A stretch of 64,000 bases of DNA. Source: Escherichia coli. GTDB lineage: Bacteria > Pseudomonadota > Gammaproteobacteria > Enterobacterales > Enterobacteriaceae. The translations under genes and the position numbers were made by a program. The notes under the pieces were generated by a model that saw nothing but the letters and a program-made list of their open reading frames with translations, made no database searches and had not been told where the DNA came from. This document shows positions 50,573 to 50,661 of this stretch, piece after piece (within the stretch, counting starts at the first letter, position 1; each line of letters starts with the position of its first letter). Location of the stretch: NCBI RefSeq assembly GCF_044324875.1, contig NZ_CP172185.1; one strand, given 5' to 3'.

Positions 50573-50661
50573 TACAAAATAGGCAAAAAAATGCCCGCCC
50601 CGGCGATCCCAGAGCAGGCAGACAAAACATACCCAGTTTCATGATATGTTTTAAAGCGAGC
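50573..50661 (-). ncRNA. flgO: flgL 3' UTR ending in a terminator-like element; candidate for the sigma-28-dependent 3'-UTR sRNA FlgO reported in K-12
   Basis: GC-rich hairpin plus a 7-U run about 80 nt downstream of the flgL stop on the minus strand; sRNA identity from recollection, boundaries approximate. Confidence 0.3.

Follow-up and report, generated by a model that had tools for sequence, protein, structure and literature searches.

A FlgO orthologue after flgL in Escherichia coli and the conserved loop of its first hairpin

Background

The DNA that follows the stop codon of flgL in Escherichia coli raises a simple question: is it only the tail of a flagellar mRNA, or does it hold a small RNA with a function of its own, and if so, in which part of the RNA would that function lie? 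We have followed this question in a stretch of 64,000 nucleotides of an E. coli genome (contig NZ_CP172185.1, assembly GCF_044324875.1), here called the window, for which an earlier note, made from the letters alone, had proposed the flgL 3' UTR as a candidate for the sRNA FlgO.

FlgO derives from the flgL 3' UTR and depends on sigma-28, its level falling in a fliA mutant on Northern blots of K-12 (Melamed et al. eLife 2023, PMC10578931). According to the same study, FlgO is depleted by a 5'-phosphate-dependent exonuclease and is thus a processed rather than a primary transcript; it is recovered with Hfq by co-immunoprecipitation, as a ~75-nt doublet with the fourth-highest Hfq enrichment, and was also detected with Hfq in EPEC and Salmonella. 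Its RIL-seq target set was the smallest, with almost no reproducible partner, gatC alone being seen in four conditions, and its overexpression left flagella number and motility unaltered. The authors suggested that FlgO is perhaps not a conventional base-pairing sRNA and named Hfq titration or the recruitment of other proteins as possible roles. The flgL 3' UTR is also on a list of sRNAs whose release is predicted to depend on RNase E (Iosub et al., PMC7213987). For flgL RNA, cleavage by RNase E was mapped first in Salmonella and later found again in E. coli, the motif being RN|WU (PMC11347164). FlgO presents a puzzle, being very abundant on Hfq and yet without phenotype and nearly without targets, and the comparative data presented here narrow down where to look. 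The RNA itself is already described and annotated in K-12, and its recognition in the window is correct, not new. What is new is its wide distribution as ascertained through FlgL, the covariation of both stems, the conservation of one loop, the majority 5' allele, and the finding that its matches to gatC and flgA are not conserved.

Results

The element after flgL corresponds to K-12 FlgO

The element occupies 78 nt of the minus strand, its first nucleotide being the final A of the stop codon of flgL (50662-50664) and its end the U run (Table 1). The earlier note had described an ~80-nt minus-strand segment after the flgL stop with a GC-rich hairpin and seven U, and both the terminator scan and the fold bear this out. 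In the scan, 8 of the 12 pairs of the terminator stem (50620-50592) are G-C, and exactly TTTTTTT follows (50591-50585); terminator-like sites in 50200-51000 numbered 5, against 0.9 expected from shuffles. The minimum free energy (MFE) of the exact 78-nt element is -31.4 kcal/mol, compared with a shuffle mean of -18.2 (z = -4.5), and none of 200 shuffles was as stable. The interval first proposed, 50573-50661, was nearly right; it ran 12 nt beyond the U run and left out the first nucleotide, 50662, the last A of the stop. The MFE structure consists of two hairpins joined by a 2-nt linker, of which the upstream one (50653-50623) was absent from the earlier description. In the leader, nt 2-3 are polymorphic (AGC/AUU), and its 3' end joins a conserved U tract that abuts hairpin 1.

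Table 1. Features of the flgKL-rne region, in window coordinates
Feature	Position	Strand	Basis
sigma-28-type promoter motif upstream of flgK: TCAAGTCC, 11 nt, GCCGATAA	53304..53330	-	sequence reading; exact -10 GCCGATAA at 53304-53311
flgK CDS, first gene of the flgKL transcription unit	51627..53270	-	NCBIfam TIGR02492, E = 2.7e-101
flgL CDS, 317 aa, parent mRNA of FlgO	50662..51615	-	NCBIfam TIGR02550, E = 1.2e-105
FlgO sRNA orthologue, 78 nt	50585..50662	-	ungapped alignment with K-12 flgO b4826; covariance model R1; MFE
Single-stranded 5' leader, nt 1-9, AGCUCGCUU	50654..50662	-	unpaired in MFE structure
Hairpin 1, nt 10-40: 11-bp stem, 9-nt loop AUGAAACUG (loop 50634-50642)	50623..50653	-	MFE structure
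Intrinsic terminator hairpin common to flgL and FlgO, nt 43-71: 12-bp stem, 5-nt loop	50592..50620	-	terminator scan, MFE, covariation
U7 tail, nt 72-78	50585..50591	-	direct sequence reading
rne intrinsic terminator: 10-pair stem 50486-50509, then TTTTATTT	50486..50517	+	terminator scan
rne (RNase E), 1061 aa	47282..50467	+	NCBIfam NF008074, 2007 bits

The K-12 RefSeq record NC_000913.3 annotates an ncRNA flgO (b4826, 'small RNA FlgO') at 1140986-1141063, whose first base is the final one of the flgL stop and whose 3' end is the U run of the terminator. Identical coordinates are printed in PMC8175672, and the 5'-phosphorylated cloning primer SM041 of PMC10578931 begins at the same nucleotide as the annotated 5' end. 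Alignment with these coordinates, which the earlier note had named as a check, was ungapped and placed window 50662-50585 on K-12 flgO with 75 of 78 bases identical; the covariance model R1 described below scored the window at 77.5 bits (E ~6e-16) and K-12 at 76.2 bits. The two RNAs share position, length and the predicted two-hairpin MFE structure, and differ at three bases: nt 2-3 are GC in the window where K-12 has UU, and the 3' arm of the terminator has a C where K-12 has a U. This last change turns a G-U pair into a G-C pair, and the window element is ~2.9 kcal/mol more stable than that of K-12 (-31.4 vs -28.5 kcal/mol). The proposed fit to the 3'-UTR-derived sRNA FlgO is thus supported by the K-12 annotation of b4826 as well as by the literature on its origin in the flgL 3' UTR, and a reading of raw sequence had found a real, published sRNA with almost exact boundaries. 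We put the probability that 50585-50662 on the minus strand is the orthologue of K-12 FlgO, processed from flgL mRNA, at about 95%; identity, biogenesis and Hfq association, when they are all taken together, are still very probable.

The element is missing from both Rfam and PGAP. A search of Rfam release 15 at permissive E-values gave no family match over it, the best being anti-hemB at 13.1 bits against a gathering score of 49.5; the other matches near the flgL-rne gap were generic terminator look-alikes far under threshold, and Rfam 15 holds no FlgO family. The PGAP-annotated E. coli genomes list no feature at the FlgO position.

Promoter, processing and the 5' end

The sigma-28 consensus is TAAAGTTT-N11-GCCGATAA, and by this consensus we assign the motif upstream of flgK as a putative sigma-28 promoter. 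The scan of 50200-51000 found no sigma-70-like promoter, and an exact match search found no GCCGATAA anywhere within flgL; together with the sigma-28-type motif before flgK, this is consistent with processing of FlgO from a sigma-28 transcript. Following the K-12 and Salmonella experiments, transcription of flgKL would start at the class 3 promoter, read by sigma-28, ahead of flgK, RNase E would then cut at or just past the flgL stop codon, and the freed ~75-nt 3' fragment would be bound and stabilised by Hfq. As read from the sequence, Hfq would bind a module made up of the U-rich linker, the GC-rich hairpin of the terminator that it precedes, and the U7 tail.

Exact-word searches of 5426 complete E. 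coli genomes found the AGC type of the window in 3402 and the AUU type of K-12 in 1977. AGC is the majority E. coli allele, and the annotated 5' end of FlgO falls on a common two-base polymorphism. With GC at nt 2-3, the window lacks the U that RN|WU calls for at +2, and the annotated 5' end fits the motif less well; a perfect site (GC|UU) lies 7 nt downstream of the annotated 5' end, within the conserved U tract. Since the AGC allele is without the +2 U, the exact 5' end of FlgO is uncertain in this strain; the two candidate positions are nt 1 (50662) and, in the U tract, ~nt 8 (50655), and the latter would be in keeping with the published doublet.

The GCCGATAA octamer, the -10 element of sigma-28 promoters, occurs 11 times in the whole window, compared with 2.6 expected, and none of 100 shuffles reached 11. 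Of the two copies inspected, one, at 53304, belongs to the motif upstream of flgK, and the other, at 61431, to a full sigma-28 consensus (TAAAGATT-N11-GCCGATAA) at 61412-61438 on the plus strand, upstream of a 97-aa ORF (61482-61775). This is probably the predicted flgM class-3 promoter, the ORF being at the position of flgM.

The gap between flgL and rne

The two genes are convergent, and their 194-nt gap holds two distinct intrinsic terminators, one per strand. The rne terminator, which the earlier note had placed in the same gap on the other strand, was recovered by the scan as a separate plus-strand hairpin with its own T run, ~70 nt from FlgO. The gap has matches in 5425 E. coli genomes, with 6116 places altogether, and is at least 80% covered in 4734 genomes; judged by this coverage, the spacer between the FlgO and rne terminators (50514-50584) would carry an indel or replaced sequence in many E. 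coli strains. In three of the loci gathered for comparison (L002, L004 and L005) the sequence diverges immediately past the U run. Five plasmid-labelled E. coli records also have the flgL-FlgO junction, and may be mislabelled chromosomal contigs.

Distribution and covariation across Enterobacteriaceae

Loci for comparison were gathered through the FlgL protein, one genome per species, so that ascertainment was independent of the RNA; this gave 69 loci. Alignment A2 (MAFFT) contains 62 distinct sequences, and the covariance model R1 was built from it. The loci of Salmonella enterica and S. bongori were fetched separately and stand outside the R1 seed. In the 405 kb searched, R1 matched 66 of the 71 loci, from more than 20 enterobacterial genera, exactly once each and every time immediately behind flgL. 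Both Salmonella species, although not in the seed, scored 88-89 bits. There was no match in the flgL loci of Pseudocitrobacter or Hafnia, where flgL itself is kept. The model thus detects one copy after flgL in most Enterobacteriaceae, Salmonella included, whereas Rfam and PGAP annotate none.

The layout is as constant as the position. The distance from stop codon to U tail is 71-83 nt in nearly all loci, and the spacing between the flgL stop codon and hairpin 1 is always 8-18 nt, with a conserved U tract ahead of the hairpin. All 62 homologues end in 6-10 U, with seven in 38 and eight in 20. Where rne was found within 2.5 kb it was convergent with flgL, and it is the direct neighbour only in Escherichia and some other genera; in S. 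bongori a gene for an MFS transporter starts 5 nt past the U tail, and Pseudocitrobacter likewise has an MFS transporter gene in place of rne. Conservation on account of the rne terminator was considered and rejected, as the element is kept whatever gene lies downstream (rne, MFS transporter or other). Its retention with differing downstream genes ties it to flgL and not to rne.

When the structure derived from the window is laid over A2, 91.3% of its cells are paired, compared with 31-51% when the partners are slid by 1-3 columns. Double changes, on both sides of a pair, occur in 15 of the 21 pairs, and none of 500 shuffles reached any of the observed measures. Compensatory double changes are found in 9 of the 11 pairs of hairpin 1 and in 6 of the 10 core pairs of the terminator. 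RNAalifold, run on the same alignment, independently predicts both helices and recovers 9 of the 11 pairs of hairpin 1. The alignment thus indicates that both predicted stems of FlgO covary across Enterobacteriaceae.

Two loci deserve separate mention. In Kluyvera genomosp. 3 YDC799 (L069), flgL has an in-frame stop after 268 codons, and the remaining flgL 3' sequence and FlgO are intact, the latter scoring 74 bits. A 280-bp contig labelled Arthrobacter agilis (NZ_VHIM01000044.1, L070) carries 110 nt past the flgL stop that are identical to the K-12 FlgO region and spacer, and is almost certainly a contamination of that assembly.

High sequence conservation in the loop of hairpin 1

Within A2 the frequency of the majority base differs greatly between the parts of the RNA. 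It is 0.95 for the loop GAAAC of hairpin 1, 0.89 for the terminator helix, 0.81 for helix 1, where the changes are compensatory, and 0.28 for the 5' leader. For comparison, the last 30 codons of flgL give 0.91, 0.94 and 0.66 at their first, second and third positions, so that the conserved loop core, GAAAC(UGG), stands at ~95% against ~66% for the third codon positions of the gene just upstream. The U tract just before helix 1 is conserved at 94-98%, while the rest of the leader varies between genera. GAAAC was present in the loop of 55 of the 62 distinct sequences, and GAAACUGG in 48 of 62.

The loop of the terminator follows another course. Outside Escherichia its 3' side (A2 columns 69-75) reads [C/U]ACCCC in 39 of 62 sequences, while Escherichia has GGGAUCGCC and a longer stem. 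Salmonella keeps the loop of hairpin 1 (ACGAAACUGG) and has a terminator loop unlike that of E. coli, presumably the loop difference mentioned in PMC10578931. These frequencies point to the hairpin-1 loop, rather than the leader or the Escherichia terminator loop, as the part of FlgO that is under sequence-specific selection. A GGA loop motif of the CsrA type was also considered and dropped for want of conservation, CUGGAUAUG being found in many genera and CUGGGUAUG in E. coli.

Candidate partners of the loop

A first candidate is gatC. In K-12, FlgO nt 21-41, the loop of hairpin 1 together with its 3' arm, can form a duplex with nt 1244-1264 of gatC (NC_000913.3 2173015-2173035; locus L077 4016-4036, minus strand) at 20 of 21 positions, through 17 Watson-Crick and 3 G-U pairs with one U-U mismatch, at -25.4 kcal/mol. 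As background, all 88 chunks of 1418 nt taken from the window reached at most 18; the duplex energy alone is weakly significant (P ~0.03 per target). Most E. coli genomes carry the site, which encodes SPQNIPGF. At the same place, GatC of Salmonella, Kluyvera, Kosakonia and Cronobacter has TWQN(I/L/V)(V/T)GF, and with the site differing in other genera we rejected gatC as a conserved target; at best it is specific to Escherichia. That gatC is a real target of FlgO in E. coli is doubtful, with the odds leaning against it, and the match may explain the FlgO-gatC chimeras of the E. coli RIL-seq experiments.

A second match lies in flgA (60747-61406), a RIL-seq partner of FlgO in one condition (PMC10578931), where ACCCAGUUUC at 61205-61214 on the plus strand is a perfect 10-bp Watson-Crick complement of FlgO nt 23-32. 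As the reason for the conservation of the loop, flgA was rejected, since Salmonella, C. koseri and Pseudocitrobacter have TMIR or SMLR there and not TQFR. For msrB, gcvH, borD, the garP-garD spacer, the ptsG 5' UTR and 23S rRNA and its antisense, complementarity to FlgO was not above background. The G/U-rich 3' arm of hairpin 1 pairs promiscuously, and smpB is complementary to FlgO at 19 of 20 positions, with many G-U pairs. No conserved partner of the loop emerged from the RIL-seq partners examined or from either strand of 23S rRNA, the gatC and flgA sites not being conserved outside Escherichia.

Discussion

The pattern of conservation hints at where the specificity of FlgO might reside. In the reading that we favor, the specificity determinant would be the hairpin-1 loop AUGAAACUG, held under purifying selection above a covarying stem, and FlgO would most likely act in trans through this loop, which would serve either as a nucleation site for base pairing or as a contact for a protein. 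Resting as it does on comparative sequence data, the proposal that the loop is the functional determinant of FlgO is tentative, and we would set its chances somewhat below even. A more specific version, in which the loop GAAACUGG recognises a specific partner, as the seed of a kissing-loop interaction with a conserved RNA or as the contact site of some protein besides Hfq, and Escherichia has in addition acquired the gatC match, is unlikely as a whole but has an appreciable chance. If it were true, recognition through the loop would explain how one of the highest Hfq enrichments can go alongside unconventional base-pairing behaviour, and the Escherichia match to gatC would link the expression of late flagellar genes to galactitol uptake.

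Three other explanations retain a share of the probability. FlgO could mainly occupy Hfq, as a titrator or sponge that alters the availability of Hfq to other sRNAs when the late flagellar genes are on, and, as proposed in PMC10578931, no specific target would then be needed. An RNA that is fourth in Hfq enrichment but has the smallest target set (PMC10578931), and that ends in a textbook Hfq 3' module of GC-rich hairpin and seven U, would suit such a role well, and titration would account for the conservation of the terminator and the U tail. It does not account for the conserved sequence GAAAC(UGG) in the loop of hairpin 1, and overexpression of FlgO had no measured effect (PMC10578931). On balance, we consider titration as the main role rather improbable.

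The element might also be nothing other than the flgL 3' UTR with its terminator, and the short RNA a stable decay remnant, protected by Hfq and without a function of its own. The absence of a phenotype on overexpression and the very few reproducible partners (PMC10578931) would agree with this, as would the lack of conservation of the candidate gatC and flgA pairings, and the 3' hairpin with its U run is required for the termination of flgL in any event. Termination, however, needs no second hairpin, and hairpin 1 has nonetheless been preserved, 9 of its 11 pairs showing compensatory changes; moreover, its loop is as conserved as the first and second codon positions of flgL (0.95 vs 0.91-0.94), in more than 20 genera and at a constant spacing of 71-83 nt. 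We hold a by-product of this kind to be quite improbable.

Hairpin 1 could instead serve the flgKL mRNA in cis, in RNase E processing, mRNA stability, translation termination or the localisation of flgL, and not as a trans effector. This has in its favor that the hairpin always lies 8-18 nt past the flgL stop and is preceded by a U tract that would fit an RNase E site, that flgL RNA has a documented site of RNase E cleavage (PMC11347164), and that the linkage to flgL holds whatever lies downstream. A purely cis-acting element, on the other hand, would not need its freed fragment to accumulate and bind Hfq strongly, as it does (PMC10578931), and Pseudocitrobacter and Hafnia keep flgL without the FlgO element. 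Such a role has poor odds in our estimation. Finally, a 26-codon ORF (MKLGMFCLPALGSPGRAFFCLFCIVG) can be read from an AUG in the hairpin-1 loop, and we rejected it, giving a small protein next to no chance: the start codon lies inside the hairpin without a preceding Shine-Dalgarno sequence, and other genera have UUG, CUG, GUG or UGG in its place. The reading frame is disrupted there by indels in the linker and in the loop of the terminator; it also stays open through the terminator, which would leave the FlgO transcript without a stop codon.

FlgO stands somewhat apart from the sRNAs that it otherwise resembles. Like the processed 3'-UTR Hfq sRNAs CpxQ, SdhX, MalH and GadF (class in PMC7213987 and PMC8175672), FlgO has a terminator in common with the upstream gene, a 5' end that, going by the published work, RNase E makes, no predicted promoter of its own, and a 3' hairpin and U tail that fit Hfq binding. 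The members of that class, however, have a defined single-stranded seed and validated targets, whereas FlgO is nearly devoid of reproducible targets and shows no phenotype, and its best conserved unpaired stretch is the loop of a hairpin. With FliX (fliC 3' UTR), UhpU (uhpT 3' UTR) and MotR (motA 5' UTR), FlgO shares membership of the sigma-28 regulon, binding to Hfq and an origin in the UTRs of late flagellar or co-regulated genes; UhpU, MotR and FliX change flagella number and motility, and FlgO does not (PMC10578931). We saw no sequence relationship of FlgO to FliX, UhpU or MotR, and R1 matched nothing else in the flg loci.

In the window as a whole, R1 had one other match, at 22231-22299 on the minus strand (31 bits, E ~1e-4), directly after an 85-aa ORF (22303-22560). 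Its position is that of BhsB, an sRNA of K-12 (b4832, 1169303-1169402), which overlaps the 3' end and 3' UTR of bhsA. Unlike FlgO, BhsB is without the GAAACUGG loop, and the two are not homologous; the weak score comes from generic shape and the terminator. In BhsB, as in FlgO, a stop codon is followed by a small hairpin and then a terminator.
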